Origin: Malacoraja senta
Lineage: Eukaryota
DNA length: 64,000 nucleotides
Direction: 5' to 3'
Assembly (NCBI GenBank): GCA_038087875.1
Contig: CM075992.1
Span: forward strand, 8,868,001 to 8,932,000
A program made the translations under genes and the position numbers. This document shows, piece after piece, positions 3,511-60,543 of the stretch; position 1 is the first letter of the stretch, and the number at the start of each line of letters is the position of its first letter. The notes beneath the pieces are model-generated. The model saw nothing but the letters and a program-made list of their open reading frames with translations, did no database searches and was not told the origin of the DNA.

Positions 3511-4702
3511 ATGTCCTTCCTCAAAAAAGAAGAAGGGTCGAAACGTCACTCATTCCTTCTCCCCAGAGATGCTGCCTGTCCCGCTGAGTTACTCCAGCAT
3601 TTTGTGTCTATCTTGAGATTAGTATAATTTGGCAATGTGATCGGTGCAAATATAGTGGGCCGAAGGGCTCGTTCCTCCACCATATTTTGCTATGCAATTT
3701 AAAAGTAAAACTGGTAGTTATGGAAATCAAAACCCAAATTAATATTGTGTAAGAAGGAACTGCAGATACTGGTTTAAACCAAAGATAGACACAAAAAGCT
3801 GGAGTAATTCAGCGGGAACTACCCTGACTTTCAGTCTGAAGAAGGGTCTCCACTCAAAAGTCACCTATTCTTTTTCTCCAGAGATGCTGTCTGACCCACT
3901 GAGTTACTCCAGCTTTTTGTGTCTATCCCGAATTAATATTTGTTGGCGATACAAACTTAGGTATGGTACTTCCCAATTTCCTCTCTGCATACCAAAATCA
4001 CAATGGGGATCAAACTAGGATCCATAATAAAAGATGGTTCAGGGTGGAGTGGGCAGATTTCATATATTCTTACAAGATCTTATCTTCAGTCTGAAGAAGG
4101 GTTTTGGCCCGAAACGTTGCCTATTTCCTTCGCTCCATAGGTGCTGCTGCACCCGCTGAGTTTCTCCAGCACTTTTGTCTAACTCAGACCAACAGTCCTC
4201 GAACCAGAATTACCCTTTTTGCATATTTCAAGGCTGCACTTATCTTGAGATTTTTTATAATATATTTTAATTCTCCACCTATCAAATATGAAAACACTTC
4301 TAGGACAAAGTAGCATCAATGTTTAGCTTAGTAACAGACCCTTCTGTCCACTGAGTACACACTGATCATCCATTCACACTGGTTCTCTGTAATCTTACTT
4401 TCCCATTCAATCTCCACACACCTGGGGGCAATTTACAGAGGGTCAATTAACCTATAAACTCATGCATCCTTGAGATGTGGGAGAAAATCAAAGCACCTGG
4501 AAAAAACAGGTTATAGGGAGAACGTACAAACTTCTCACAGATAGCACCCGAGGTCAGGATCGAACCCAGGACTCTGGCACTTAGAGGCAGCAGCTCTACC
4601 AGCTGCACCGCTGTGTTGCTTACATATTTTGATACATTGAATTACTGAGTAAATTATGGAACATATGTAGAAAGTTATCGCCACTGCTAACATTTTACTT
4701 AC

Positions 4703-4850
4703 CATAGCAAAAAGGTTGTCATAACCCTTCACCTTTGTTGGCACTTTGGAGAATTTCTGATCAAATGCATCAGAAATGTTATGGGCTGGGTCCGTGGAAA
4801 TAATCAGCACAGTCTCTCGAACCTCTGCCAACTGCACAGCCAAGCTGCAA
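4703..4850 (-). CDS. GET3: GET3/ASNA1 coding exon 2
   Basis: Acceptor ttccaaacag| and donor ATG|GTAAGT. 148 nt: (S)[49 protein letters not shown], with the switch I motif STDPAH. Phases join exons 1 and 3. Confidence 0.97.
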
Positions 4851-7311
4851 CTGTTTGGAATAAAAAGATTTGTATTGAGGAGACACAAGGAACTGCTGAT
4901 GCTGGAATCTCGAGCAAAAACGAAGTGCTGGAGGAACTCAGTATCTGTGGAAGGAATGGATGAGTGACATTTCAGATCTGGTCCCTTCTTCAGAGTTTAT
5001 CGATTTCCTCCACAGCGTGACCCAATGAGAACCTCTAACCATTTATGTTTTGCTCAAGGTTTGTATTTATATACAGATGTATTCACACAGTGAAGTGCTT
5101 TTAGCCAATAATCATCTTTTGATCTGAAGACATTTGTACTGTCGAAGGGGGAAACCGTCCTCACTCAGCAAGCTCCCGCACACTGCAATCTGATAATGAC
5201 TGGAAAGTGATAGTCGGATCAGGTGAGGAGAGATACTGGCAGATGGGTGTAAGTTGTAACCAAGGCTGGAGATAAAGTGGAAAAGGGAGTAGATATTAAA
5301 TCTGTTAAGAAGATGAGGAGTGAAATGTAGAACTAGAGGAAGGGGTGGAGGGGATTGGGGGCTGAAAAGAAAAATTGGGGGTATGGTGTAGGGAAGGATG
5401 GGAGATGAGCAGATGGAGGAGGAAAAAGGAACTAGGTAGTTTTCACCCACTCTCACTCCGTCCGGTTCTACATTTCACTTCCCATCTTCCTTTTTATCAG
5501 ATTCCACATTCTGTCACCGCGTCACATAAAGAGCTTTCTCCTCACCTCAATACTAAATGGCTTACCTTTATTCTGAAACTGTAACCCCTGCTTTCAGATC
5601 CTACAGCCAAGGGAACATCATCCCTGCCGATACCCGGTTAAAATGAGGTCCATTTAAACACTAGAGAATACAGGTCTAGTTTACTCAATCTAATCCCAAA
5701 CAGCAAGCTATCACTCGCAAACCAATCTGATAAACCTTCATTACAATCCATGACAAATCTTATTTTTTACAAAATTGGACACAAGGCTCCAGGTGCAGTC
5801 TCACTAAGGGTTGTAAATAGAGTAAGACATCATCACGACAGCACTCCCATAATAAAGGCCAATAGACCATTTTCCTTCTTGTGAAAATAATGTAAAAATT
5901 CAAACTTATAACTAAATAGGAAGGAACTGGAGATACTGCTTTACATGCAAGATAGACATAAAATACTGAAGAAGGGCTGAAGATGGGTCTCGACCCAAAA
6001 CGTTGCCTATTTCCTTCACTCCATAGATGCTGCCTCACCCGCTAAGTTCCTCCAGCATTTTTGTCTACCTTCGATTTTCCAGCATCTGCAGTTCCTTCTT
6101 AAACATAAAATACTGGGGTAACTCAGCGGGATAAGCAGCATCTCTGGAGAGAAGGAATGGGTAACGTTTCGGATCGAGATCCGAAGAATCAGTCTGAAGA
6201 AGTGTCTCGACCCAAAATGGCATCCATTCTTCTCTCCAGAGAGCCTGTCCCGCTGAGTTAATCCAGCATTTTGTGTCTAGTAACTAAAGTGTGTTATTAA
6301 ACAAATGGTGCCAGAGAAGTATTGTTCTTATTGTGACTTTCTTCCACAGAAACAAACAATTTGTGGCAAATTCCAAATTAAACAGTGTTGCAACTAATAG
6401 ATCATGGCACATACTTTAAAGTGGCACAGCCTCAATATAGTTACAACCATTAAGGATCAAAATAGCACACTAGAGATACAGCAGATGAATGGTCTCTAAA
6501 TCTGTTGAAGAATAACTTGCCTGACATAAAAAATTCACTTTGGGCCACGTTTTAATCTAACACAGCAGCTTGTTTTCATCTAACCCACAGCTAACCATGG
6601 ACTGTTTCCTTGATCATTGTTATTTTTTTTTGCATATTTTTCATTCATTTCTTCTATATCTCTCTATATCTTTTTTTTAAATCGTTCGAAATAAAAAGAT
6701 ATCAAATATCAAATCACGAATCAATATCTCTAATTTCCCTTTCACTTTCCCCTGATTCTCATTCGAAAGAAGGGTTTTTGACCCCAAACGTCACCTATTC
6801 CTTTTCTCCAAAGATACTGCCTGACCTGCTGTGTTACTCCTGGATAGAGTGTATGTGGAGAGAATGTTTCCACTAGTGGGAGAGTCTTGGACCGGAGATC
6901 ATAGTCTCAGAATTGAAGGACTTTCCTTTAGGGAGGAGATGAGGAGGAGTTTCTTTAGTCAGAGGGTGATGAATCTGTGAAATTAATTGCCACAGAAGGC
7001 AAGTCAATTGATATTTTTAAGACAGAGATAGATTCTTGATTAGTACGGATGTGTCAGGGGTTATGGGGAGAAGGCAGGAGAATGGGATTGGGAGGGAGAG
7101 AGATCAACCATGATTGGCACAGTAGACTTGATGGGCCAAATGGTCTAATTTTGCTCCTATCACTTATGACCATGATCATTTTGTGTATATCTTCGGTAGA
7201 AACCAGCATCTACGATTCCTTCTTGCACACAACTGTATTTATGCAATGTTTTGAATCTATTAAAGGGGCTGAAGGCAGAGTTTGCGACGAACCGTCACGC
7301 AGAATTAGGAG

Positions 7312-7530: not shown

Positions 7531-7909
7531 ACGCAGAATTAGGAGACGTGGACCAAGGGCTTGTTCGTGGAGAGAGGCTCCTATGGGAGGATACAGGCGG
7601 CTGAGAACCCGCTGCGGGGAAATATAGACACAAAAAGCTGGAGTAACTCAGCGGGTCAGGCAGCATCTCTGGAGAGAAGGAATAGGTGACAGACTTTTCT
7701 CGACCCTATTCATGTTCTCCAGAGATGCTGCCTGACCCGCTGAGTTACTCCAGCTTTTAGTGTCTGCCTTCGGTTTAAACCAGTATCTGCAGTTGCTTCC
7801 TACACGCTGCGGGCGGGGAGACTCCGGGCATCGGGCCTGACACTGACAGCCGCCCCATGGCAACTCCACCAACAGCCCCGGCCCCGGCCCTGACCCCGGC
7901 CCCTTCTAC

Positions 7910-8058: not shown

Positions 8059-9460
8059 CTTGCGCCGTCACGTGACGGGGCCTCAGGCCTCGCCCTGTCC
8101 CCTGTCCCCGTTCCCCCCGCGACTGCCGCCACCTCAGCTCAGCACCGCGCCGCCACAACCCGCCTGCAAACCTCCCGACAACAACAACGATGGCCGAACT
8201 CACTCCTAATCACCGCAAATACAAACCAATTCACCCCCCCCCACACCAACAACAACTTGGCATCACCACCCCCTCCTATCCGCGCCGCTGATTGGCGCAG
8301 CCGCTCCCAACACAATATCTTCACATTCCTTAAACAGCCACCAGGCTAAAGTTATGCATTTAAAGTGTTTTATCCTTCGCTATTCCTGCCCAGAAATGTG
8401 GGCTTTTAAACTTCTAATTCCTGTCTTAAATCTTATGCCACCACCGAAAGCACATCAGCGCCTCTACTTCCTGAGAAGATTACGGAGAGTCGGTTTGTCA
8501 AGGAGGACTCTCTCTAACTTCTGAAGTTTGAAGTAGGGTTTCGGCCTGAAACGTTGCCTATTTCCTTCGCTCCATAGATGCTGCTGCACCCGCTGAGTTT
8601 CTCCAGTATTTTTGTGTACCCTCTCTCTAACTGCTACAGGTGCACAGTAGAGAGCATGCTGACCAGTTGCATCGTGGCTTGGTTCGGCAACTTGAGCGCC
8701 CTGGAGAGGAAAAGACTACAAAAAGTAGTAAACACTCCCCAGTCCATCATCGGCTCTGACCTCCCATCGAGGGGATCTATCGCAGTCGCTGCCTCAAAAA
8801 GGCTGGCAGCATCATCAAGGACCCACACCATCCTGGCCACACACTTATCTCCCCGCTACCTTCAGGTAGAAGGTACAGGAGCCTGAAGACTGCAACGACC
8901 AGGTTCAGGAATAGCTACTTCCCCACAGCCAACAGGCTATTAAACTTGGCTCGGACAAAACTCTGAACATTAATAGCCCATTATCTGTTATTTGCACTTT
9001 ATCAGTTTATTTATTCATGTGTGTATTACGTATATAATGGTATATGGACACGCTGATCTGTTTTGTAGTCAATGCCTACTATGTTCTGTTGTGCTGAAGC
9101 AAAGCAAGAATTTCATTGTCCTATCTGGGACACATGACAATAAACTCTCTTGACTTGTCTTGACTCAAGATCCTAGACGAGCCTCCTTTGCTCTTGACTT
9201 GTCTGCAGCACCGGCATGCTTTGCAAGTTGAGCTTGGCCAACTTTTCCACTTAAGATGGACATAAAGTGGATGCTGCCGACTGTATTTGACAGTGGCAAC
9301 TATATTTATAGTAGGCTATATACTATTTAGCTTTCGTCCGCGTAGTGACATTGTTAATTTTAACGTTTATTGCCCCCCCGGGGCGGCAGTCAGTCAGTCA
9401 GCCCGCCCGCCCTCACTCTCTCCCAGCAGGCTCGGCGGCCGCCCTTCCCAAGATGGCGGA
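8052..9460. promoter_or_regulatory. Bidirectional GET3/TRIR promoter region with CpG-rich flanks
   Basis: Divergent ATGs at 8058 (-) and 9453 (+). CpG-rich at about 7590-8330 and 9330-9960. A YY1-type CAAGATGGCGG overlaps both start codons. Palindrome CCGTCACGTGACGG at 8065-8078. CCAAT boxes at 8226-8230 and 8291-8295 (reverse). Confidence 0.75.
8443..9165 (+). mobile_element. Rex1/Babar-type LINE 3' fragment inside the GET3/TRIR promoter, interrupted by a pseudo-LTR (about 8523-8620)
   Basis: KAHQRLYFLRRLRRVGLSRRTLSN / YRCTVESMLTSCIVAWFGN...LQKVVNT. TSD ctctctctaactNct (8508-8522, 8621-8635). Tail (cttga)n. Confidence 0.8.
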
Positions 9461-9749
9461 GAGGCGAAGGAGCCGCGAAGTTTCTCGAAGCTCCGAAGCG
9501 GAGAGCAAAGGGGTGAACGCCTTCGCCAACGACGGCAGCTTCATGGCGCTCTTCAAGAAGATGGAGGAGGAGAAGGCGGCGCAACGGGAGTCGGGCGGCG
9601 GCGGAGGCGGAGGCGGAGAAGGAGGAGGAGGAGGAGGAGAAGGCGGGGACGTGGAGCGCGGAGGGCGGCCGAGACCGGTGGCGGCCACGGCAGCAGCGGC
9701 GGGCCCGGGGGCGGAGGCCGAGGCCGGCAGGAGGCCCGCGCCGAACACT
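9453..9749 (+). CDS. TRIR: TRIR (C19orf43, telomerase RNA component interacting RNase) coding exon 1
   Basis: MAERRRSREVSRSSEAESKGVNAFANDGSFMALFKKMEEE..., where the N.FANDGSF..LFK motif is typical of TRIR. A poly-Gly linker follows. Donor ACT|GTAAGG, 297 nt, phase 0. Confidence 0.9.
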
Positions 9750-12700
9750 GTAAGGGCCGGAGGTTTCGCCTGCGGGTACCGAGCGGGGCTGGGGCTGGAT
9801 CTGCCGTTGTTATCCATCCTTCCCCCCCAATGTCGCCCCATTTACTCACCTGGGGCGAGGGAGGGAGCGATCCGCCCGCCCGCCCGCCCGACCGCCCGGG
9901 AACAACACAAACACATTGCAGTCGCCCACTGTCATCCCACCCTCGGCTCCCTGCTTTGTCCCATAGCCGACACACTAGCCAGCTTCCATTCTTCATTCCC
10001 AATGGGGATATATATACCCAAGCCGTGACTTCCCACAGTCATCTAATCCTTTCAATCGTACAGCACCAAAAACAGGCTCGAAGACAGACGCAAAACGCTG
10101 GAGTAACTCAGTGGGACGGGCAGCATCTCTGGAGAGAAGGAATGGGAAACGTTTCTGTCTTCAACTCGTCCATACCATCCAGACCCGTCTTCAGTCTGAC
10201 CCGCTGAGTTATTCCAGCTTCTTGTGCCTCTCTTCAGCCTGAAGAAGGGCCCCGACCTGAAATGTCTCACCTATTCCATTTTTTTCTATAGATGCTGCCC
10301 GGCCCGCTGAGTTACTCCAGCGTTTCGTGGCTATCTAAATTTAGAGTATAGTGTTCAGTTCTGTAGCAAAGGTGTTGTCAACCTAGAAAAAAATCACAAG
10401 GATGTTGCCAACTCGAGGGTCTGAGCTGCACGGAGAGGATGGATAAGCTCGGACTCCATTCTTTGGAGTGCAGAAGGATGAGGGGTGAAACCGAGGTGTA
10501 TCATATAATGCGAGGAATAGATTGGGTAAAAGCACAAAGTCTTTTACCCAGAATAGGGTGTTCAAAAACTAGAGGACATAGTTTACGTTGAGGGGGGAAA
10601 GATTTAATAGGTATCCAAAGAGCAAATTAGGTACACGGAATGAGCTGCCAGAGGAGATAGTTGAGGCAGGTACTATAATATAATTTTAAAGACACTAGTA
10701 GCTGGTACATGGATAAGATGAGAACGGTTCACTTGGATAGCTTAAGGATGTTTCCACCAGTGGGAGAGTCTAGGACCAGAGTAAAGCCTTTAGAAAGACG
10801 AGGAGGGATTTCTTTAGTCAGAGGGTGGTGAATCTGTGGAATTCATTGCCACAGATGGCTGTGGAGGCTGTCAATGGGTGTTTTTAAGGCTAAGATTGAC
10901 AGATTCTTGATTACTAAGGGTGTCAGGAGTTTTGGGGCGATGGCAGGAGAATGGCATTGAGAGGGAAAGATAGAGCATCCTGACACAAGATTATAGGAGA
11001 AGTAGATTTAAATCTTTTCAAAGACTACTGCAGATGTTAGCTGCTTGAAGTAAAATGCTGGAAATATTTGGATCAGGCAGCATTTGGAGAGGGAAAAGTA
11101 GTGTATTAGGTCAATGAAGGGTAGACTAGTAGATTCAGAACATTGAATTGCTCTATTGGTTATATTAATTAAACAATGTAGCAAAACAACATACTAAATC
11201 TTAACTGGAAAAAACATACAAAAGTGCTGGAGTAATTCAGTGGGTCAGCCAGCATCTCTAGAGAACATGGTGAGTATTGTTATGGGTCGGAACCCTTCTT
11301 CATACTGACCTGATGCTGCCTGACCTAAGTTTTTTTTGTTGTAAACCAGCATCTGCAGGTTATTGTTTCAGAATCTTAACTGGAGTACAGTATTGTCTAA
11401 TTCTAAGCACAATAATGGTGAAGGAAGGAACTGCAGATGGTGGTTTAAATCGAAGATAGGCAACAAATACTGGAGTAACTTAACGGAACAAGCAGCATCG
11501 CTGGAGAGAAGGAATGGATGATGTTTCGGGTCGAGACCCTTCTTCAGACTATGGATATGTGACGTTTCGGGTCGGGACCCTTCTTCAGATTAGAGTTAGG
11601 GGAAAGGGAATCGAGAGGTTTAGCTCGGGTGAAAGGGAAACATTTCCATTTCCCTTGTTCCTAGTCTGAAGAAGGGTCTTGACCCGAAGCATCACCCATT
11701 CCTTCTCTCCAGAGATGCTGTCTGTCCTGCTGAGTTACTCCAGCATTTTGTGTCCATAATGGTAAAGGGGAGAGAGATCTGTTGAGTAGAGGAGTGGAGC
11801 AAATTGTTTCCGTTTGAATCCAAAGTTATGTGGAGATATAATGCCAATTCTAAAATTGATGAAGCTTGTAGATAGTATTTAAAGAGAGGATACTGACAGA
11901 TACTGATTTAAACATATACTCCTTAAAATAGGGACACAAGAGATTGCTAATGCAGGGATATTATGCAAAACATAATAATCTGGAAGGGCTCAACGGGTCA
12001 AGCAGCATCTGTAGAGGCAAAAGGATGGTCGACTATTTTGGTCAAGACCCAGCATCAGAGCTGGGAATGTAGATGGAAGATAGTCTGGATAGATCAGTGG
12101 GAAATAGGGATGAGGTGATTGCTGGATCCAGTTTTTTTTTTTTTTTGAGGGGGGGGTTACCGGAAATATGAAATGAAGCACAGAAAATGGTGGGGATATT
12201 TGGACCAGGCAGCATCCGTGGAGAAAGAAATATTCAACATTTCAGACCGACCTTTCATCGGATGGAGAGTGAGGTAGTTTCCTGCTTAATATTTGCCCCC
12301 TCGCCAATTTTGCTAGGACAGATTAGTTCACTGATGTTTTGGGGCCCTCACTGTGTGCAAATTGGTTTCTGTGCTTTCAATGTTGTAATAATAATTGTAT
12401 TTCCAAAATAACTTTGTAGTGCTTTGAGATGTTGCAAAGCGGTGAACAACAGATATAAGAAAACATCCTTTCTATTTTGTATGATGAAAAAAAAGTGAAG
12501 TAGTGATGGTAGGCAAAAAAAAATAATCACTTTTTGGGTATTTATATAAAAAATCAACAACAAAGGAAAGCATCGAAATGTTAGCTGACGTGTGTATTTC
12601 TTTCACTTTTTTGCTTTGTTTTTAGTTCCTAAATTGATGTACTTTGATGATACAACTTGATGACTTTCTCAAAGAATTTCTTCCAGGATTTTTAAAAATT

Positions 12701-20290: not shown

Positions 20291-22130
20291 CCATCCTTAA
20301 CATTGGTGCCACCGATCAGCAGGGGAGTTGGGTTGTAGAGATCACGCACCAACATCACAAATCCAGCTATCATCCGAAACAAACCAGCTTTATCCAGAGT
20401 TTCCAGCAGTTGTATAAATGGAAGACATTTTCTGAAAGTTAAATATTATGTTCTTGAACCTGAAAGCCCAACGTCTTGCAACAAGTCTTTACAGTGTTAC
20501 TCATGCTCAAAATAGTTATGTGATTGAGTTGAAACAAGCACACCCATATAATTGTCTGTACACCACGGTGTGTATTAACAGTGCTAGTCACACTTCAACC
20601 ATAAGTTTAGAGTTAGGCATGGAAACAGGCCCTTCGGTCCACTGAGTCCATGCCGACCATCTATCACCCGTCCGCACTAGTTCTACGCTACCCCCACTTT
20701 CTCATCCACTCCTTGCACACTTAGAGGGCTAGTTAAGCTACAAACCCGCACGTCTTTTGGATGGGGGAGGAAACCGGAGCACCCGGAGGAAACCCAGGCT
20801 GTCACAGGGAGAGCGATCAAACTCTACACCGTCAGGGAGTTTGAACGTACTCCCTGTGACAGCGTGGGTTTTTCTCCAGGTGCTCCGGTTTCCTCCCACA
20901 ATCCCAAGGACGTACAGGTTTGTAGGGTAATTGGCTTCGTTAAAAATCTAAATTGTCCCCATTGTGTAGGATAGCGCTCGTGTATGGGATCGCTGGTCGG
21001 CGCAGACTTGGTGGGCCGAAGGGCCTGTTTCCCCGATGTATCTCACAAGTAAGCTTTATAAGTCAGGATCGAAGCCGGGTCTCTGACGCTGTGAGGCAGT
21101 GGTTCTACCAGCTGCGCCACTGTGAACACCCTGCCACTGACTGTGTGGGGTTGGATAGGTCTGAGGAGGACTATGCTGGCGTCTGGAATAGTTGGATGTC
21201 TGGGACACTTCATTCCTTGACCAGGTTGTACGTCACACTCACACGTTATTCTTCCATGGGCCTTCAAGGAACAGCAGGGTCAGCTTGTGTCGTGCAGGTG
21301 AATGGGGCTAGGAGGGAAAGATAGATCAGCCATGATTGAATGGCGGAGTAGACCCGATGGGCCGAATGGCCTAATACTACTCCTAGAACTTATGAACACC
21401 AATTTTGAGATCTTTGGCCTAATCCTCATGGCTCTTCCTAGTAGTGTGGTAACTAAGGGCATGTGGAAGGTGTAAGAAAGAAATGGTATAAGTCGAAGGT
21501 AGACACAAAATGCTGGAGTAACTCAGCGGGTGAAGCAGCATCTCTGGAGAAAAGGAATGGGTGACGTTTCGGATCGAGACCCTAGAAGTGTCTTGACCCG
21601 AAACGTCGCCCATTCCTTCTCTCCAGAGATGCTGCCTCACCCGCTGAGTTACTCCACCATTCTGTGTCTACCTAAGGGCGTGTAGACACATACAGTCGGG
21701 TAGACACTACTGTCGGGTTCCTTCCGCTCAGAGATAGTCACCATTACCGGCAGTAGGCTTTTCAATTCCACGTTTGCTCAATGGACTGCATGTTAATTCC
21801 CACCCTGAGGTGGTGATGAAATTTGAACTGACATCCACCGAACTGGAGGATTATCGGCCCGACAATGACTCTGCTGCTGCATTGTTTTTACTGTAATATC
21901 TTTGTGCTGAGTTGCCGTGGCAGTGACCGCCAGCTTCCCTCTGGGCTGGAACAGGCTGTAACTTTGCAAAGGACATTGCGCAGTGAGGATGTTGCACCAA
22001 CGTTCACACTTTCACATAAAGAGCTCTTGCTCAAACGTCTGTGCTTTCATGTTCCAGGCCAGCCACACTTTGACACTGCTGGTGAAGGGAGTTTTAGGGA
22101 CACCTTCGCTCAGTCCGCCTTGGCCTTTGC

Positions 22131-38916: not shown

Positions 38917-40845
38917 TAACTCAGCAGGACAGGCCAAATATGGGCATATGGGGCTAAGCTGGATATGGGCCAAATGCGGGCATATGGGACTAGCATAGAT
39001 GGGGCAGGAGAAATGTGTCGGAAGGAACTGCAGGTGCTGCACTAAATCGAAGATAGACACAAAAAGTGTAACTCAGCGGGTCAGACAGCATCTCTGGAGA
39101 GAAGGAATAGGTGACGTTGTGGGTCGAGACCCTTCTTCAGTGTCACTCATCATTTCATAAACCCATACAAGGGTCACCCATCAGCATTCTACATTATAGT
39201 AAGAATAAACCAGCCTAACCAAACTCTCATAAGTAAAGCCCTGTATTTTCAGGCAACATCTCGGTGAATCTTATCTGCACTCTTTTGAACTTCACCACAT
39301 CCTTCTGTAGTGTCGCAAACACAATTGCACACAATACTCCAAATGCAGCCTGGCCATTTTTGGACAGCTGCAACATGACATCCCAACTCCTACACTCAAT
39401 GATAGACACAAAATGCTGGAGTAACTCAGCGGGACAAGCAGCACCTCTGGAGGGAAGGAATGGGTGACGATTTGGGTCGAGACCCTTCCTCAAACTCAAT
39501 GAATTCAATTCAGACTTTAATGAATTCCTTTCCAATTCTTGTACTCAATGCCCTGTCCTGTGAAGGCAAGCCCGCTGAGTGCCATCTTCACTGTCTACCT
39601 GCTTCTCCATTTTGAGGGAGCAAAGAATTTGCATCCCGAGGCACCTGTACAGCAACACTCCCGAGGTGTCTGTGATTAACGTTAGTATTGAACTTCCCAA
39701 AGTGTTTCACACCTCAGATATTGAAGGACAAATTCAAGAGACAGCACAACCAAAAAGATGGAGTAATATTCCTCACATAATGGAAGGGACTGAACACAGA
39801 ACAGTACAGCAAAGGAACAGGCCATTCAGCCCACAATATCTCTGCCAGACATGATGCCCAGTTAAACTAATCTTACAGGGCGGTGCAGCGGTAGAGTTGC
39901 TGCCTTTCAGCGCCAGAGACCCAGGTTTCATCCTGACCGTCTCTGCTGCCTGTATGGAGTTTGTACGTTCTCCCTGAGTCCACGTGGGTTTTTTCCGGGT
40001 GTCCTCTCACATCCCAAAGACATGCGGGTTTGTAGGTTAATAAGCCTCTCTGTAAATTGTCCCTAGTATGTAGGATAGAACTAGTACATAGGTAATGTGT
40101 AGCAAGGAACTGCAGATGCTGGTTTACATCGAAGATAGACACAAAAAGCCAAAGTAACTCGGCGGGTCAGACAGCATCTCCGGAGAAAAGGAATAGGAGA
40201 TGTTTCGGGTTCAGAGCCTTCTTCAGACCATTACGTGATCATTGTGTTTAAGAACTGCAGATGCTGGAAAAATCGAAGGTAGGCAAAAATGCTGGAGAAA
40301 CTCAGCGGGTGAGGCAGCATCTATGGAACGAAGGAATAGGTGACGTTTCGGGTCGAGTCTGAAGAAGGGTCTCAACCTGAAACGTCACCTATTCCTTCGC
40401 TCCATAGATGCTGCCTCATCCGCTGAGTTTCTCCAGCATTTTTGTCTACCTCCTATTACGTGATCATTGGTCGGCACGGACTCGTTGGGCTGAAGGGCCT
40501 ATTTCCACGCTGTAACTCCAAACTAAAATGGTAAACTAAAACTGAACTGAAATGTAAACGCGACTCATCTGGCACAAGGATATGGCACATGGTCCATATC
40601 CTTCCATAGCCATTCTCCCCCAGAATCTCTCAATTGCTCATCTCCCATTACTGCTCCATATTACAAGACATGCAGTAAATATCTTTATTCAGTCTGACAA
40701 TCAGGGTGCTTTTTTTTCTGCTGTAACCTTCTCAGTGAACACTAGTTCAGTTTTAACCATGAAGACATAATAGACATTTACCAAGGAGAGATGAGCTACC
40801 ATCAGTTGTGTGGTTAGAAGGACCACTCAGACCAGAGAGTCTTAC

Positions 40846-42873: not shown

Positions 42874-43309
42874 TAACTCCCCACCACGTTGCACTCCCAC
42901 AACTTTCTGTCTCTCTTCTGCGATGACACCGATTCATGGTCCATGGGGAAAGGTTGCTGAGTGATGGATGATCCACGAGCTTATTCTTCAGGAGCAAACT
43001 CGATGAAAGCAGCAATGGTTCATGTTCATAGGTTCTAGAGGCAGAATTAGGCCATTTGGCCCATCAAGTCTACTGTGCCATTCAATCATGGCTGACCCAT
43101 CTTTCCCTCTCAACCCCATTTTCCTGCCTTCTCTGCATAACCCCTGACACTAATTGAGAATCTGTCATCTCCGCCTTAAAAATATCCATTGACTTGGCCT
43201 CCACATACGTCTGTGGCAATGTATTCCACAGATTCACCGCCCTCTGACTAAAAAAATTCCTCCTCATCTCCTTTCTAAAGGTACATCCTTTTATTCTGAG
43301 GCTGTGGGA

Positions 43310-43761
43310 ATGGGGAATCAGTGTGGGCAAGCTCACCGCAGAATGAACTCCATACCTTACCAGTCTGGGAGCTGCCCAGTCTGCATGCCGCCTGGGTCAA
43401 GACGAGATGGAGAGACCAGTGGAAGTCAGCAGAACCATCTAGGCTACGCCAGTACATCAATGACCCCATGGGCGTTCCTGGCCAGGACCTGCCCCGAAAG
43501 CAGTGGACAACCCTCAACCGCTTGAGGACAGGCATCGGACGCTATGGAGTAGCGATGAAGAGGTGGGGCCTCGTGGACAGCGAGTGCCTCCTGCGAGTGT
43601 GGGGACCCAACACAGACAGTGGAGCACATAGTCACCAGTTGCCCCAAACACCGGCCACCGAATGGTGAACGAGGTCTGATTGACCTGGACGATGACACGT
43701 TGGCCTGGCTCGCCTCAAAGGAGCTGCAGGTCTAAAAGACACACGACAGAAGAAGAAGAAG
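43310..43761 (+). mobile_element. 5'-truncated Vingi/Ingi-like (I-group) LINE 3' end
   Basis: ...PRKQWTTLNRLRTGIGRYGVAMKRWGLVD, then after a frameshift ASCECGDPTQTVEHIVTSCPKH (CCHC knuckle)...WLASKELQV-TAA. Very short 3' UTR and (GAA)n tail. Confidence 0.7.
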
Positions 43762-47451: not shown

Positions 47452-47712
<261 letters not shown>

Positions 47713-52967: not shown

Positions 52968-53168
<201 letters not shown>

Positions 53169-53261
53169 TCAAGATTGTTGTGGGCGAGCAGGAGGGAAGG
53201 AAGGGAAGGAAACAAAAGCAAAGTGAATGTCAAGCTACCTAAATGCGATACGATTATCAGT

Positions 53262-53289
53262 CTGAAGAAGGGCCTCGACCCGAAACGTC
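53262..53289 (+). ncRNA. Minimal type I hammerhead-like core in Penelope pseudo-LTR (representative copy)
   Basis: CUGAAGA-A-stem II-GAAACGUC. Related copies at 28186-28213 (+), 4091-4118 (+), about 53817 (+), 11559-11588 (-) and about 36538 (-). Stem II is GGGU-N4-RCCC in most copies. Confidence 0.6.
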
Positions 53290-55011
53290 ATCCATTCCTT
53301 CTATCCAGAGATGCTGCCCCACTGAGTTACTCCAGCATTTTGTCTATTGTTAGAAGGCTACACCATTATGGCTGCAGATCACCAGTGGACAAGTGCACAG
53401 AGGTGAAGAGGCTAACTTTCTCTTCCTCTCTCACATCATCCAAGTCAGCAGTTCGCAAAAGCACATCTCGGGCGGGTGTCGCTGCAAGTGCCGAGCGCAT
53501 GGATAGGACGCGGCCCGCAGCAGCACCGAGCAGGCTGACCCCAGCAACACCAACCCAGTGCCTCTGCCAGGACAATGAGCCTTTATGGCCAAGTTTAGAA
53601 GGGTCTTGACCCAAAACGTCACCCATTCCTTCTCTCCAGAGATGCTGCCTGTCCCGCTGAGTTACTCCAGCATTTTGTGTCTATCTTCAGACTCTAACAC
53701 TTTTGGCCAAACTATGAATTTTCCTATTTGAACAATGAAGGACATTATTGTCAAGCATAACCTTGTCGTCAGTCACAAGCAGCCTATGCACTGCCAATGA
53801 GGGGAATTATCACTCTCTGAAGAAGGGTTTTGGCCCGAAACGTTGCCTAATTCCTTGGCGCCATAGATGCTGCTGCACCCGCTGAGTTTCTCCAGCACTT
53901 TTGTCTACCTATCACTCTCTACATCCCTAAATATCTCTCTTTCTCCTTAATTTAGCTCAAGGCAAGGATTTCTGCTCCCACCTCATTAACATCACATAGA
54001 AACATAGAAAATAGGTGCAGGAGGAGACCATTCGGCCCTTCGAGCCAGCACCGCCATTCATTGTGATCATGGCTGATCACCTGTTGATGATAACGAGCAT
54101 CACCCAAAAATGAACTGCTTCTTTTAAAAAGTTTCCCTTTACAAGTTTAGTTTAGTTTAGTTTAGTTTAGCGATACAGACCCTTTGGCCCACCGAGTCCA
54201 TGCCAACCTGCCGATCCCCGAACACTAACACTATCCTACACACACTAGGGACAACTTACAATTTTACCAAAGCTAATTAACCTACAAACCTGTACGTCTT
54301 TGGAGTGTGGGAGGAAACTGGAGCACCTGGAGAAAACCCACGCGGGTCACGGGGAGAACGTACAAACTCCGTACAGGCAGCACCCAGAGTCAGGATCGAA
54401 TTCGGGTCTCTGGTGCTGTGAGGCAGCAATACCGCGGCGCCTCCGTGCCGCCCCCGAGTGAATAAGAAACAATTGCCTTCCCCGTCAAGGACCACAGAAT
54501 TGGTTATTGGCTCCCTGGAATTGTTGCTTTGGAGAATAGATCATAGAACTGATGATGGATTCAAGCAGAAATTCTGGGTGATCTGAAGGATAAAATACTA
54601 CAGGGCAGGGTACAATACCACCTGGTGCATGTTATAGAACATAGAACAGTACAGCACAAGAACAGGCCTTTCAGCCCACAATGTCTGTGCCAAACCCGAT
54701 GCCAAGACCAACTTCTACCTACCTACACATAATCCTTATCCCGCAATTCCCTGCATATCCACATATCCCTATTCAAATGTCTCTTAAATGCCACTATCAT
54801 ATCTCCGTAAAGAGTTTCACAGAGTTAGACATTTTCAGAGATTCTAAACATTTACAAAGCTGCATGGAAGATCAGTGGTGACAAAAACGTGTTTAGATCA
54901 TGTCAAAGCCACTTCAAAGTAGGGTTGTTTGAAGAAGGGTTTGAAATCTGTAGAAGGCATCTGATGGGAAATATCACCTATCCACGTTCTCCAGGGGTGC
55001 TGCCAGACTTA

Positions 55012-55250
55012 AGGGCCTGTCCCACTTTCATGACCTAATTCACCACCTCTGCCGAGTTTGCCCTTGACTCACACTCGCTGCATGGTCGTCACGAGGTCCT
55101 AGGAGGTCATAGGTAGGTCGTAGCAGGTCGTGATTCTAGTCGTAGGTACTCGTGGCATCAAGTAGGTTGCGGCGATTTTTTAAGCCTGATGAAAAATGTC
55201 CACGAGTTAAAAAAGGTCGTGAATTAGGTCGTGAAAGTGGGACAGGCCCT
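55012..55250. mobile_element. PIF/Harbinger-type MITE inserted in a Penelope pseudo-LTR
   Basis: agggcctgtcccactttca.../...tgaaagtgggacaggccct, with TTA TSD. Confidence 0.88.
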
Positions 55251-56699
55251 TTACTCCAGCATTTTGTGTCTATTTTTCCTCGGGTTGCTTGGCATTGACA
55301 CCTATGGACAATTGCTCAAATGTTTGGTCAGAGGTTTATTTTCAATAGAATATCAAAGGAGAGAGAAGAATAGTGGGAAGGAAAGAGAACCGAGAGGGAG
55401 TTCCAGAGATTCAGTGCAGCTGCAGTGCAAGGTGGTCAGTGGTGGGGAGATTCAGATTGAGGATGCACAGGAGGCCAGGACTGGAACTGTGGATAGAGTG
55501 GACGTGGAGAGGATGTTTCCACTAGTGGGAGAGTCTAGGACTTGAGGTCACAGCCTCAGAATTAAAGGACGTTCTTTTTGGAAGGAGATGAGGAGACATT
55601 TCTTTAGTCAGAGGGTGGTGAATCTGTGGAATTCTTTGCCACAGAAGGCTGTGAAGGCCAAGTCAGTGGATATGTTTAAGGCAGAGATAGATAGATTCTT
55701 GATTAGTGCGGGTGTCAGGGGTTATGGGGAGAAGGCAGGAGAATGGGGTTAGGAGGGAGAGATAGATCAGCCATGATTGAATGGCAGAGTAGACTTGATG
55801 GGCCGAATGGCCTAATTCAGCTCCTATTCCTTATGATCTTATGAAGGCAGGGCAAGAGGAGTGCATTACCAGAGATGTGCAATAATATACAATTCTCTGG
55901 TTTGCAACCACAGAGGAAATAGGCAGGCCACCGCAGTCTCCACACCTCCTTCCTGATGTGGAGCAATTAGGCAACTTGGAGGGGCAGAAGAAGCAGATTT
56001 TTCTTTTTTTTTAATATCGTGGTTTCATATACTTCTCACCATCTCATACTTAGTTGTTCAAGTAGACTTTTTTTAATATAACAATTTGTGTCAGCTGAAT
56101 GGATTCTCTGCCCTTGCTGCGACTTGTACAGGATCCATTTTCAGAGTGAAAACTGTGAGTTTCATAACTCCGTCTCTTTGCCAACTTATATTTTATTCAG
56201 TCACGATTTGAAATTGACTCATCTTTGCAATTGGGCAATCAGGCACCAGCACTGGTTCGCATTCGAGGCCCTCCCCTTGACCTCAGTTCAACGGGGCAGG
56301 AGGGAAAAAATATAATTTGGTTAGTTTTGTCTTTTTAAAATTTCCCGCTCTTCCCCAACTTGAATGTCACTGGATGGGAGATCGGAGGATTCACCAATGG
56401 AATCAGTCGAACGGGTTTGTATGCTGGCATGGTATCGTTGTAGGTCATGTTGCAGTATCTAATGAGCTTGCAACTTAGTAGCTGGCGCAACCTTGTTCTG
56501 CTACTCTGCAATGCAACAGTGTTACTTACGCACATTCTTTGCTCCAGATGGCTGACCTGTGAATGCCCTCCCTGACCTTGATGTAACATAGTTCACGAGA
56601 GGTGTCCTTCAAAGATCTGCTTGCAGCAGTTTCAAAAATCAAGTACTGTACAGGGAAAGGATCAATTAAGCCCATGGTCTGCTATTCTACTCTATTGAA

Positions 56700-57395
56700 T
56701 CTAATAATAATAATAATAATAATATCTTTTATTGTCATTGCACATAGGCGCAATGCGATTTGGTATGCAGCTTCCATCCGAAGTCATAACTTAAACTAAT
56801 ACAATTTAGATACCCAGAGAAACATGATTTATAAAAAAGAACAGTAAAACAATCAAAAGTGCAAATATATCTGTGCCGTGTCGATGTGCGACGTGACCAT
56901 CCGAGGGAGACAGTCCATGGGGGTGGGGGCCACTCAGCAGGGCCGGTTCAGAGCAGCTATGGCTCTGGGGATGAAGCTGTTCCTGAGTCTGGAGGTGCGG
57001 GCGTAGGCCTTGTAACGTCTGCCGGAAGGTAGGAGTTCGAACAGACTATTACAAGGGTGTGAGGAGTCTTTGTGGATACTGACGGCCTTCCTGAGGCACC
57101 GTGTGTAGTAGATGCCCTCCAAGGCTGGTAGTTGTGTCCCAATTATCTTCTGCGCTCTGTGGACGACGCGCTGAAGAGCTCTCCTCTCCGCCTCCGTGCA
57201 GCTGAGATACCACACAGAGATGCCATATGTTAGTATAGCGGTAGAATGTTGTCAGCAGCTGTTGGGGCAGACCAGTCTTTTTCAATGTTCTCAGGAAGAA
57301 CAGTCGTTGCTGTGCCTTCTTGACCAGCGCAGACCATGTGAGGTCCTCTGAAATGTGTGCGTCCAGAAACCTAAAGCTGGACATTCTCTCCACAC
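56700..57395 (-). mobile_element. Rex1/Babar-type LINE 3' fragment
   Basis: SFRFL...KKAQQRLFFLRTLKK...LQRVVHRAQKIIG...HPCNSLFELLPSGRRY...RLRNSFIPRAI. (tta)n tail. Further fragments at 25790-26235(+), 24703-24977(+), 33650-34030(+), 41690-42180(-) and 59115-59380(+). Confidence 0.85.
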
Positions 57396-57660
57396 TGCAT
57401 CTTATAGAGATGCAGCATGCAAACAGGTCCTTTGGCCCACTGAATCCCCGCTGAATCCCCGCTGAAGCAAAAAAACAATTCATACAACACAGATTTTTTT
57501 TGTATATACAAAGACAATGTTTCTCCCTTCCAACCATCTCATCCACAGAAACGTTTGTGCTAAATGTTGCTGGGATGGTTGCAGCTCTTAGACCTTCTGC
57601 AAATGGTCAATTCTTATGAAAATGACCAGGCCATTCTTACGAACAACAGGCTATTCAACT

Positions 57661-57802
57661 TCTTCTTCATCTTGCATATGGCGTGCACAGCCTAAAGTTG
57701 TAGGACAACTTGTTCTATTTGGTCTTATTTGATTGTGCACGCCAGGTTGATTGCATTCGTCGAAACAGGGCGGACCACGTGAAGGTTGCAATCTCCCACC
57801 CC
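57661..57802 (-). mobile_element. 142-bp non-autonomous retroelement with 5' HDV-like ribozyme and GAA tail (element A)
   Basis: Perfect 12-bp TSD ggctattcaact (57649-57660 and 57803-57814). Starts at ribozyme G1. Internal 11-bp stem TGGCGTGCACA/TGTGCACGCCA. Ends catatgcaagatgaagaaga. Confidence 0.85.
57749..57802 (-). ncRNA. Minimal HDV-like self-cleaving ribozyme (predicted, 54 nt)
   Basis: GGGGUGG(P1)-GA-GAUUGCA(P2)-ACC(P3)-UUCACGU(L3)-GGU(P3')-CCGCCCU(P1', G1.U wobble)-GU(P1.1)-UUCGA-CGAA(J4/2 with catalytic C)-UGCAAUC(P2'). Confidence 0.85.
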
Positions 57803-58966
57803 GGCTATTCAACTAATTGGGGACCACAGCCAAACAAACTCAGCTGCTGTATACTATCATATTGAGTCTCATTACCTGAAACTCCTTTTCACCTAGGCCA
57901 CAGCTAACAATGGCCAGTCGCCTTTGTCATCGTAACTTTTTAACATATTTTTAATTAATTTGTTCTATATATATTTCTCTCTGTATCACCATCTATATCT
58001 CTTGTTTCCCTTTCCCCTGACTCTCAGTCTGAAGAAGGGTCTCGACCCAAATTCCTTTTCTCCAGAGATGTTGTCTGACCGGCTGAGTTACTCCAGCTTT
58101 TTGTGTCTATCTGCTGTACACTATCCATGTGTTTGAGAGTGAGTGGTACTGTTCCTGCAGCCCATCGCTGCCCAGTGACTCTGCCAAAGGCCCACATCAC
58201 TGTTAAGCTGGAATTGTCTTCACTGGTTCCTCATCTCCAAGGCAGAAGTTATAATCTGTGCACCACAAATTCTACACGTGTACCCTTACACCAACCTCCA
58301 GGGACCTCTGCATCTATGGGCAACCAAGGTGTGTGGTACAGCGGTAGAGTTGATGCCTCACAGCGCCAGAGTCCCGGGTTCAATCCCGACTACGGGTGCT
58401 GCCTGTACCGAGTTTGTAAGTTCTCCCCGTGACCCGCGTGGGTTTCCTCCCACATTCCAAAGACGTGCGGGTTTGCAGGTGAATTGGCCTCTGTGTGGTG
58501 GGAAGGAAGCAGGGCTTCAGGATCATCCACCTGACATGGACAGCTCCATCTTGGGGGAGCAGCAGCAACAGCGGAAACCGTTGGATGAAAGGGACTACAA
58601 AAAGTGTGACTGCTGAAATAGCACAGGCAACGAGCCAATGTGTTCCACTTGACACGGCACGAACTCCACAACAAACGGCAGCACCATGCAAGGACGCCAC
58701 TGGTCTTAAAATTGAGCGAAAGTGGATTGTGCAATAAAAATCAGATAAACGTGTTCATAGTTCACCCCTATCTTCAAAAAGTCATTAAAACAGATAAGCA
58801 CCTTGGCTGTACAATTTCACATATCGTTATATACAAATACAACATGGCTCAAAGGATACAGGATGTAATACTTAAACATACTTCATGAAATAAAAGTCAA
58901 ATAAATAACAGAAACAAAAAGTCCAGTGAATGTAGAAAACACCTGTAGCAAATATAAATGTTCTTA

Positions 58967-59107
<141 letters not shown>

Positions 59108-60351
59108 TTAAGTCCAGCACGGATACTGACCTCCCCACCATCGAAGGGATCTACAGGAGTCGCTGCCTCAAAATGGCAGCCAGCATCATCAGAGACCCAC
59201 ACCACCCTGGCCACACACTCATTTCACTCTTGCCATTGGGAAGAAGAGATAGGAGCCTGAAAACTAACATCCAGGGTCTGGAACAGCTTCTTCCCTTCAA
59301 CCATCAGTCTATTAAACACTACAACCTCCAAATAAGCTCTGAATTACATAGACTTGGGAGCATTGTTTTTTTTTGTGTATGTGTATATACAGCTGGAGAT
59401 GAACTGAAAATGTGCAAAAACCCCATGGCACTGCTTGGAAAGCAAGTGAGACACCTTCCCTCACGAAGGAAGAGACTGCCTGGTAGTCTAATGGAGACCT
59501 CGTATAATAATACAGCAGCATTCCTGTTCTTCACTGACCCACCACAATCATCTAACAATCTAGGCCTGTCCAGAACTACGCAGAAGTACACTTCAAGTTG
59601 CTAATTCACAATGGGTTTTTTCTTTAGTTTAAATTATCATCTAATCATAAATAAATTAATATTCCACAGGGAAGATTCCACTTAAATATATTTGTTAGTC
59701 TTTCATGTTAAGGCATTCTTTGGGTTACAGCAGTGCGGGACTCAAAACCAATTGTCTTATGAACCCGACCAAGTTAAGTGATTCTAATACTACCATTCAA
59801 AAAAATCTTGCACGCACACACACAGCATGGAAACAGGCCCTTTGGCCCACTAAGTCCACACCGAACATTGGTCACCTGTTCACTAGTTCTCTGTTATCCC
59901 ACTTTCTCATCCACTTCCTACTCACTAGGGGCAAATTTACAGAGGGCCAATTAAACTACTAACCCGCACGTCTTTGGGATGTGGGAGGAAACAAGAGCAC
60001 CCGGGGGAAACCCACGTGGTCACAGGGAGAATGTGCAAACTCCACACAGACAGTACTCGTAGTCAGGATCGAACCAGGGTCTCTGGTGCTGTTGGCAGCA
60101 GCTCTACCAGCTGTGCTGTACATCCAAAAAGAAAAAAAATCTTGAATTCCAATCTTCCAATCTACCTTGCTGAAGCCCATGCATTCTTTTTCATCTGCAC
60201 ATTCCCTGTAGCAGTAACACTATATTCTGCACTCTTTATTTATTTATTTTTGCACTATTTGGTGTAATCATGCATGAAATGATTTGCCTGGAAAATACAG
60301 TGTAAAACCTTGTTTTGTGTATCTCAGTACACATGCCGTTAGTAAATCAAT

Positions 60352-60418
60352 GGCCCCATAGCAGAAGCGTCCACGTCGCGGGGCTGGAGACTGGAAGTAT
60401 CCTGAGCTAATTCTGCTA
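60352..60418 (+). ncRNA. HDV-like self-cleaving ribozyme, CPEB3-like core (predicted, 67 nt)
   Basis: GGCCCC(P1)-A-UAGCAGAA(P2)-GCG(P3)-UCCACGU(L3)-CGC(P3')-GGGGCU(P1', G1.U)-GG(P1.1)-P4 region with GGA-AGUA-UCC-CUAA(J4/2, C60407)-UUCUGCUA(P2'). Confidence 0.85.
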
Positions 60419-60543
60419 CCACCATCATCTATTGCGACAAGTGATGGCTTCCACTGATTGTCACAGCAGGAAGCTTGCGTCCTTTTCAGGACGGACGATG
60501 ACAGCGAGGTCAACATTTGTAACAAGATGGACATGAAAAGAAG
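60352..60543 (+). mobile_element. 192-bp non-autonomous retroelement with 5' HDV-like ribozyme and GAA-rich tail (element B)
   Basis: 11-bp TSD agtaaa(t/c)caat at 60341-60351 and 60544-60554. Starts at ribozyme G1, has three further hairpins, and ends gacatgaaaagaag. Confidence 0.8.

Follow-up and report, generated by a model that had tools for sequence, protein, structure and literature searches.

The window analysed here is a 64,000-nt stretch of the Malacoraja senta genome, and all positions are counted from its first letter (Table 1). A short retroelement, which we call element A, lies on its minus strand in an intron, in sense to the host gene and 1,165 nt downstream of the 5′ splice site, so that read-through transcription is available to it. 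The two exons flanking this intron had no Pfam match and presumably belong to KRI1; a Kri1 domain (Pfam, 9e-14) was found at 47452–47712 on the same strand as the host intron. The window also contains an ArsA/GET3-type ATPase exon and, at 9315–10028 on the plus strand, a first exon without a Pfam match that we take to resemble TRIR/C19orf43. An abundant MITE-like family with long inverted repeats (7641–7750, 10097–10321, 21517–21652, 40296–40431, 58024–58100, and others) yields spurious sub-threshold miRNA matches in Rfam. A second short family with an HDV-like fold, element B, and a 3′ fragment of the LINE family V1 are also present on the plus strand.

Element A was originally described as a 142-bp retroelement with a minimal HDV-like ribozyme at its exact 5′ end, and this description proved right throughout when the minus strand was read from the first nucleotide, G1. 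Within a 54-nt fold, P1 (GGGGUGG/CCGCCCU) formed 7/7 pairs including a G1·U pair, P2 (GAUUGCA/UGCAAUC) formed 7/7, and P3 (ACC/GGU) formed 3/3, with UUCACGU as L3 and CGAA as J4/2. The P4 helix is absent and P1.1 consists of a single C-G pair plus a U·U opposition; a 7-nt GUUUCGA stands where P1.1 and P4 would be, and J1/2 is the 2-nt GA. The TSD is exactly 12 bp, with one copy abutting G1 and the other following the GAA tail. Downstream of the ribozyme, the 11-bp outer stem and the 7-bp AAGUUGU/ACAACUU hairpin appeared in both the MFE and centroid folds. On this model, element A would have the nested double pseudoknot of HDV-like ribozymes (P1, P2, P3, L3, and P1.1) and is predicted to be a minimal, P4-less member in which a short loop replaces P4, with self-cleavage expected 5′ of G1. 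An HDV descriptor, composed after the original finding was known, had elements A and B as its only matches in the window, and none of 20 Markov-shuffled 64-kb sequences contained a match. The 3′ domain alone folded better than expected (z = −3.2; 3/500 shuffles equally good), whereas the folding of the whole 142 nt was not exceptional under a model without pseudoknots (z = −0.94; equalled by 30/200 shuffles), and an Rfam scan of element A gave no match at E ≤ 1, including no tRNA or 5S match. The tail of the window copy has two private changes; the majority of element A copies end CCATACGC(AAG)n.

Table 1. Features of the window. Positions are those of the 64,000-nt stretch.
Feature	Position	Strand	Basis or remark
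ArsA/GET3-type ATPase exon	4535–4996	−	Pfam 2e-18
5′-truncated 3′ fragment of V1, with (GAA)n tail	43380–43761 (start approximate)	+	V1 family comparison
Host intron, ~5.8 kb, GT..AG	53167–58967	−	Splice sites and frame; exons 58968–59077 and 53034–53166 in frame
Downstream copy of 12-bp TSD	57649–57660	−	Sequence
Element A, non-autonomous retroelement, subfamily S1	57661–57802	−	Internal-deletion derivative of V5
V5 3′-end part: ORF end, 3′ UTR, terminal motif, (GAA)n tail	57661–57708	−	V5 comparison
Outer stem 3′ arm (V5 3′ UTR)	57679–57689	−	Predicted fold and V5 comparison
Inner 7-bp hairpin spanning deletion junction	57695–57711	−	Predicted fold and V5 comparison
V5 5′-end part: ribozyme and 5′ UTR start	57725–57802	−	nt 9–78 align to L252, 89%
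Outer stem 5′ arm (5′-UTR arm of proposed panhandle)	57734–57744	−	11 bp; 8 bp in V5
54-nt P4-less HDV-like ribozyme fold	57749–57802	−	Predicted cleavage 5′ of G1 (57802)
Predicted catalytic C of element A ribozyme	57759	−	First base of J4/2
Upstream copy of 12-bp TSD, abutting G1	57803–57814	−	Sequence
Element B, short family, 66-nt HDV-like fold	60352–60543	+	Rfam CPEB3 41.1 bits; tail in common with V3

A core 20-mer of element A had at least 5,381 exact matches in the 1.94-Gb genome, and its reversed control had none. Four copies were also met by chance within 522 kb fetched for other queries, a yield from which, as a rough estimate, the true copy number is plausibly ~10,000 or more. The copies are interspersed, monomeric between TSDs, and without coding capacity, and they end in a simple-repeat tail of variable length. 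To define the 5′ boundary, we used 69 copies not selected by whole-element score, since the best matches favour full-length copies; they had been picked through their 3′ half, their order on the chromosome or a negative pattern, or were met by chance. Among them, the P1 5′ strand was retained with no more than one mismatch in 58 and with two mismatches in 4, and was truncated in 4 and unanchored in 3; the sequence upstream of G1 was not shared. Heterogeneous 5′ ends reaching past G1 would have spoken against the ribozyme; the family boundary instead coincides with the predicted cleavage site. Meanwhile, contigs from four runs (four studies with four organism labels) most often ended at 57802, with 73, 34, 11, and 255 loose ends, respectively, although assembled contigs are blind to RNA ends and strand.

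An exact TSD of at least 8 nt (mostly 10–12) flanked 59 of 86 copies with an intact P1 and was absent in the other 27. It abutted G1 in 47 of the 59; one extra base intervened in 9 (6 T, 2 C, and 1 G), and two or three in 3. The last TSD base before G1 was T in 29/47 such copies of element A and in 9/10 copies of element B, and the extra bases were also mostly T, suggesting either a target preference or non-templated addition combined with pairing at the 5′ junctions of A and B. Two subfamilies were distinguished: S1 (40 copies, including the window copy) has a mean divergence of 4.0% and reads CGAA at J4/2, and S2 (13 copies) has a divergence of 7.3% and reads CUAA. Judged by these divergences, S1 is apparently the younger subfamily. 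J4/2 began with C in 96 of the 100 copies listed among 4,505, in a count made by hand.

When the tail of element A was searched with a pattern that excluded its middle, 327 matches were found, and in 17 of 30 fetched loci, the tail followed the end of an ORF of a LINE family, V5, several of these reading ..AWMSTLDLQL-stop. One locus, L252, carried in order the ribozyme of element A (from nt 9), a 5′ UTR, endonuclease and RT homology, and the tail of element A, flanked by TSDs of 8–10 nt; nt 9–78 and 95–133 of element A aligned to its opposite ends. In L254, a head of the A type continued into the endonuclease in inverted orientation. This locus was one of four among the 20 long V5 loci (L254, L255, L268, and L270) in which a ribozyme-bearing head was inverted and directly adjoined a truncated 3′ part, in a pattern resembling twin priming. 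Both ends of element A are homologous to V5 and the middle is deleted, as in a bipartite non-autonomous LINE (SIDE). By this comparison, element A is made of the first ~80 nt of V5, a junction patch of ~13 nt, and the last ~40 nt of V5. It is thus no orphan parasite; the original description had not recognised this parentage. The 3′ strand of the inner hairpin consists of the final V5 codons together with the stop codon, and its 5′ strand mostly of junction sequence unseen in V5. An improvement of this hairpin from S2 to S1 was considered and dropped, since the pairing base was already present in 7/11 S2 copies.

V5 itself already holds a P4-less ribozyme with CUAA and, at P1 position 5, a U-A pair, and S2 is accordingly the ancestral form; since V5 has both the minimal ribozyme and an 8-bp long stem, both would be LINE features inherited by element A. 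Homology of the V5 protein, of which only broken copies were seen, to the protein family of V1–V4 covers most of its length (37–57% to P0081). No V5 copy among the 20 long loci had an intact ORF or an intact G1/P1 5′ strand (the first 8 nt). V5 may therefore have died out, and mobilisation of the younger copies may be due to a different family. V1 had been suspected as the parent from its 3′ fragment in the window and was rejected because it has neither end of element A; V2–V4 were rejected because element A gave no blastn match in 30 V1–V4 loci, its last ~40 nt being common to V5 only. The loci L222, L237, and L107 are short derivatives that combine the tail of element A with other junctions or middles, implying that internal deletions of V5 probably arose repeatedly and independently. 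Other classes of element were also considered. A SINE with a Pol III head was rejected because Rfam gave no tRNA-, 5S-, or 7SL-derived head and the head derives from the 5′ end of the LINE itself; a retrozyme, because there is a single HDV-like fold, not a hammerhead, and the copies are monomeric without tandem or LTR-like repeats; and a theta ribozyme, because the host is a eukaryotic genome and the upstream flanks are unrelated TSDs, not tRNA 3′ ends.

The sister families of V5 were reached from a Vingi/Ingi-like ORF end at 43300–43668 of the window, which led to V1, and by a distant protein query, which led to V2–V4. Full-length copies of V1–V4 each start with an HDV-like fold of differing sequence, and V1, V3, and V4 also carry (GAA)n tails. 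Stop-free frames of ~1,000 aa were found in V3/V4 copies (L200, L204 with 1,008 aa, and L207 with 986 aa), indicating that these families were active recently. In V3 and V4, the single ~1,000-aa frame matched only Exo_endo_phos and RVT_1, with no RNase H, which fits the description of Vingi as a compact single ORF with APE and RT and no RNase H (PMC13708176). Compared by eye with the 5′ ends printed for Vingi-2_Gav, Vingi-4_Crp, Vingi-2_SPur, and Vingi-1_BF, those of B and V3 agreed nearly letter for letter, and A/V5 had only the fold, L3, and J4/2 in common with them; the tail of SINE2-1_AMi also matched the B/V3 tail (PMC5786205 supplement). On this domain layout and likeness of 5′ ends, V5 and its sisters are probably Vingi-type; a PDB sequence search returned L1 and R2 proteins only and no named Vingi/Ingi reference proteins. 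The search for element B gave 2,054 candidates, and the 20 fetched (18 distinct) all begin at the same G; its CPEB3-model match spans 60339–60417 of the window. Its direct parent was not found, and its terminal motif is that of V3. [quoted passage not shown]

The original prediction also held that differing helix sequences under a common fold give covariation support. This stood across families, where both sides have changed in 11 of 15 helix columns, but not within the copies of element A. Over A, B, V1, V2, and V3, 73 of 75 helix cells pair, a number reached by 0/20,000 shuffles, in a count for which the helices were parsed by the analyst to fit the fold, the families are related, and V4 was excluded because its P1 register is ambiguous. 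Between P1′ and J4/2 there are 7 nt in A and V5, compared with 21–45 in B and V1–V4. On the CPEB3 ribozyme model (RF00622, gathering threshold 35), V3 scored 57–64 bits in all three copies scanned (L201:1307–1390, L202:1307–1390, and L217:4142–4225), and the V1, V2, and V4 loci had no score in the same scan. A P1.1 of one pair plus U·U is compatible with fast cleavage (PMC13635239). In one tested scaffold, cleavage was slight or absent with a J1/2 of 0–1 nt and became faster from 3 nt onwards, so the 2-nt J1/2 of element A is near the lower limit of that scaffold (PMC4908430).

We also considered mutation at CpG sites as a sign of selection on the catalytic C. At the CpG containing this residue, C44>T was found in 350 copies and G45>A in 569, and the non-catalytic CpG of L4 was equally skewed at ~2:1 (hand counts of 16:6, 15:5, and 20:12). 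In the 100 copies listed among 4,505, the hand counts were 6:8 at L3, 32:6 at P1′, 16:6 at L4, and 12:4 at J4/2. The asymmetry was set aside as evidence for selection, since V5 already has the P1′ state from which that skew stems and L4 behaves like J4/2. The sense-strand excess of G>A over C>T of ~2:1 occurs at the L4 and J4/2 CpGs, in which the minus-strand C follows T, and not at L3; lineage effects could account for it, as could a TpC-biased deamination acting on first-strand cDNA.

The long stem unites two arms that lie ~3 kb apart at opposite ends of V5 and already form 8 bp there. In the other families the arms were taken at the same places, one directly after the ribozyme and one directly before the terminal motif, and those of V3 and V4 are unrelated in sequence. 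The matched arms form 9 Watson-Crick pairs in V3, 7 in V4, 8 in V5, and 11 in A, and the pairing is weaker elsewhere, with 5 pairs each in V2 and B and 4 in the V1 copy examined. Only 2 of 720 permutations of the families, the identity counted, equalled the matched arms, in a test with one copy per family and with window sizes set after the pattern was seen. The palindrome GTGCAC is present in both arms of element A. An A·C mismatch of the stem became G-C in at least 29/40 S1 copies, and the A was kept in 9/13 S2 copies. This modelled pairing suggests a 5′–3′ panhandle closed by 5′-UTR and 3′-UTR arms, which may present both RNA ends to the LINE protein.

From the ancestry, copy number, boundaries, TSDs, fold, and cross-family covariation of element A, we consider it probable that it is a bipartite V5 derivative with a ribozyme-cut 5′ end and a panhandle, mobilised in trans by the V5 protein. 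A copy would be transcribed, at least partly by read-through from host transcription, and the 54-nt P4-less ribozyme would cut 5′ of G1, giving an uncapped RNA that starts at the start of the unit. The arm after the ribozyme would then pair with the arm before the tail, joining both RNA ends in the panhandle, and the V5-encoded endonuclease/RT would prime at the (GAA)n tail and copy to G1, leaving a TSD of ~8–13 bp. Insertions copied from capped RNA tend to have an additional G at the junction; by this rule, the extra G in only 1/59 junctions fits an uncapped template.

An unlikely though serious competitor accepts the same ancestry and lets an internal Pol II promoter at G1 set the 5′ end, the pseudoknot being slow or inactive and serving to bind protein or protect the end. 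A promoter starting at +1 would give an equally sharp 5′ end, and in L1Tc/NARTc the same 77 nt (Pr77) act as internal promoter and ribozyme (PMC3383444), so read-through as a source is compatible with an internal promoter too. The original suggestion that element A needs no promoter, because self-cleavage frees it from host transcripts, is accordingly conjectural. The 2-nt J1/2 and the missing P4 may slow cleavage, an intact sense copy is tolerated in the intron of a probably essential gene, and the CpG at the catalytic C is skewed no differently from the L4 control. However, the catalytic-core features were kept in A and five other families despite helix turnover, the extra G expected at the junctions of capped RNA is nearly absent, and NARTc/SIDER ribozymes are active in vitro (PMC4035085). 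A promoter and a ribozyme can also coexist. The ribozyme-cut 5′ end remains our preferred reading.

The choice of V5 as a Vingi-type parent and mobiliser can also be questioned, since RTE elements too make bipartite derivatives and carry ribozymes (PMC5786205). There was no intact V5 among the 20 long loci, (GAA)n tails occur in V1, V3, and V4 as well, and the Vingi placement comes from domain layout and likeness of 5′ ends. Nevertheless, an RTE-clade or other LINE as the parent, or movement of element A by a family other than V5, seems to us highly improbable: the V5 protein belongs with those of V1–V4, the published Vingi 5′ ends recur almost letter by letter in V3 and B (PMC5786205), the intact V3/V4 ORFs are single APE+RT frames without an RNase H match, and the last ~40 nt of element A are found in V5 alone and in none of the 30 V1–V4 loci. 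The unexceptional folding of the whole element and the lack of an Rfam match would suit a fold and TSD arising by chance at a single locus, or an ordinary tRNA-derived SINE, but both ideas are practically eliminated by the thousands of core matches against a control of zero, by the 0/20 shuffled windows, and by a head that is collinear with a LINE 5′ end and has no tRNA or 5S match.

Among known systems, the closest are the trypanosomatid NARTc, RIME, and SIDER elements, which like element A are short, non-coding, and dispersed, combine a 5′ ribozyme with the 3′ end of an Ingi-group LINE, and have an HDV-like ribozyme that cuts just before +1, as predicted for A (PMC3383444, PMC4035085). In contrast, NARTc is 263 nt long with a 77-nt ribozyme that has P4, a poly(A) tail, and L1Tc/ingi as its parent, and element A is ~135 nt long with a 54-nt ribozyme without P4, a (GAA)n tail, and a vertebrate, Vingi-type parent. 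R2 SIDEs are likewise internal deletions that keep a 5′ HDV-like ribozyme and the 3′ RT-binding end (PMC3414825), although R2 is specific to its rDNA site and uses an RLE endonuclease, whereas element A is dispersed and has an APE-type parent and TSDs of 8–13 bp. By analogy, element A may work like NARTc, RIME/SIDER, and R2 SIDEs (PMC4035085, PMC6765202). The internally deleted Vingi-1_EE, SINE2-1_AMi, and SINE2-1_ACar have the same bipartite 5′+3′ Vingi structure as element A, and bipartite elements are reported from four clades including Vingi, which is unlisted among the ribozyme-bearing ones in the available text (PMC5786205).

The minimal drz-Mtgn-1/theta ribozymes resemble that of element A in lacking P4, in their length of ~50 nt, and in having the catalytic C first in J4/2. 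They are phage ribozymes, however, nearly 99% of the minimal HDV-like ribozymes being in Caudoviricetes phages, often beside tRNAs, and in the available text, searches of eukaryote genomes (human, mouse, and protists) are not reported to have found any (PMC10879173); that of element A heads a multi-thousand-copy vertebrate retroelement. With the CPEB3 ribozyme (RF00622), element A has in common the L3 UUCACGU, a GU after P1, the single-pair P1.1, the CGAA of J4/2, and, for the window copy, the intronic sense location. The two differ in P1, P2, and P3; element A has no P4 and no RF00622 score, unlike B and V3, and is mobile, whereas the CPEB3 ribozyme is single-copy and conserved. The Vingi-2_Gav and SINE2-1_AMi sequences look nearly like the CPEB3 consensus (PMC5786205 supplement). 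The scores of V3 and B and these published Vingi sequences suggest that the CPEB3 ribozyme may be a domesticated Vingi 5′ end.

In the available portions of the literature searched, there was no Vingi ribozyme, Vingi panhandle, or element A family, no Vingi origin of the CPEB3 ribozyme, and no P4-less HDV-like ribozyme in a vertebrate; Repbase, patents, and bioRxiv supplements may differ, and ribozymes of lancelet or sea-urchin Vingi elements may already stand there. The words “origin” and “transpos” are absent from PMC8233481, and PMC5753468 lists a Vingi trace in humans and never mentions ribozymes.

Ribozyme-headed internal-deletion retroelements are already known from trypanosomes and R2, and element A is not a new kind of element. 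P4-less HDV-like ribozymes, which the available reports place almost only in gut phages, are predicted here on a LINE and on at least 5,381 short vertebrate copies, and five Vingi-type families in one genome have ribozyme-type 5′ ends in a covarying set. Because V3 lies far above the cut-off of the CPEB3 model and within this set, the origin of the CPEB3 ribozyme becomes directly testable. We tentatively propose, as a generalisation slightly more likely to fail than to hold, that the ribozyme and a whole-RNA panhandle are features of the entire Vingi clade, that element A is a near-minimal template with an active P4-less ribozyme, and that mammals domesticated a Vingi 5′ end of the V3/B type as the CPEB3 ribozyme. 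If a ribozyme and panhandle are clade-wide, this would explain why Vingi parasites must keep both ends. Vingi elements are under development as RNA gene writers with a template that contains both UTRs (PMC13708176); the panhandle, if real, would give a concrete reason why Vingi templates need both, and a natural template of 135 nt would define the minimal cis-elements for the Vingi machinery.
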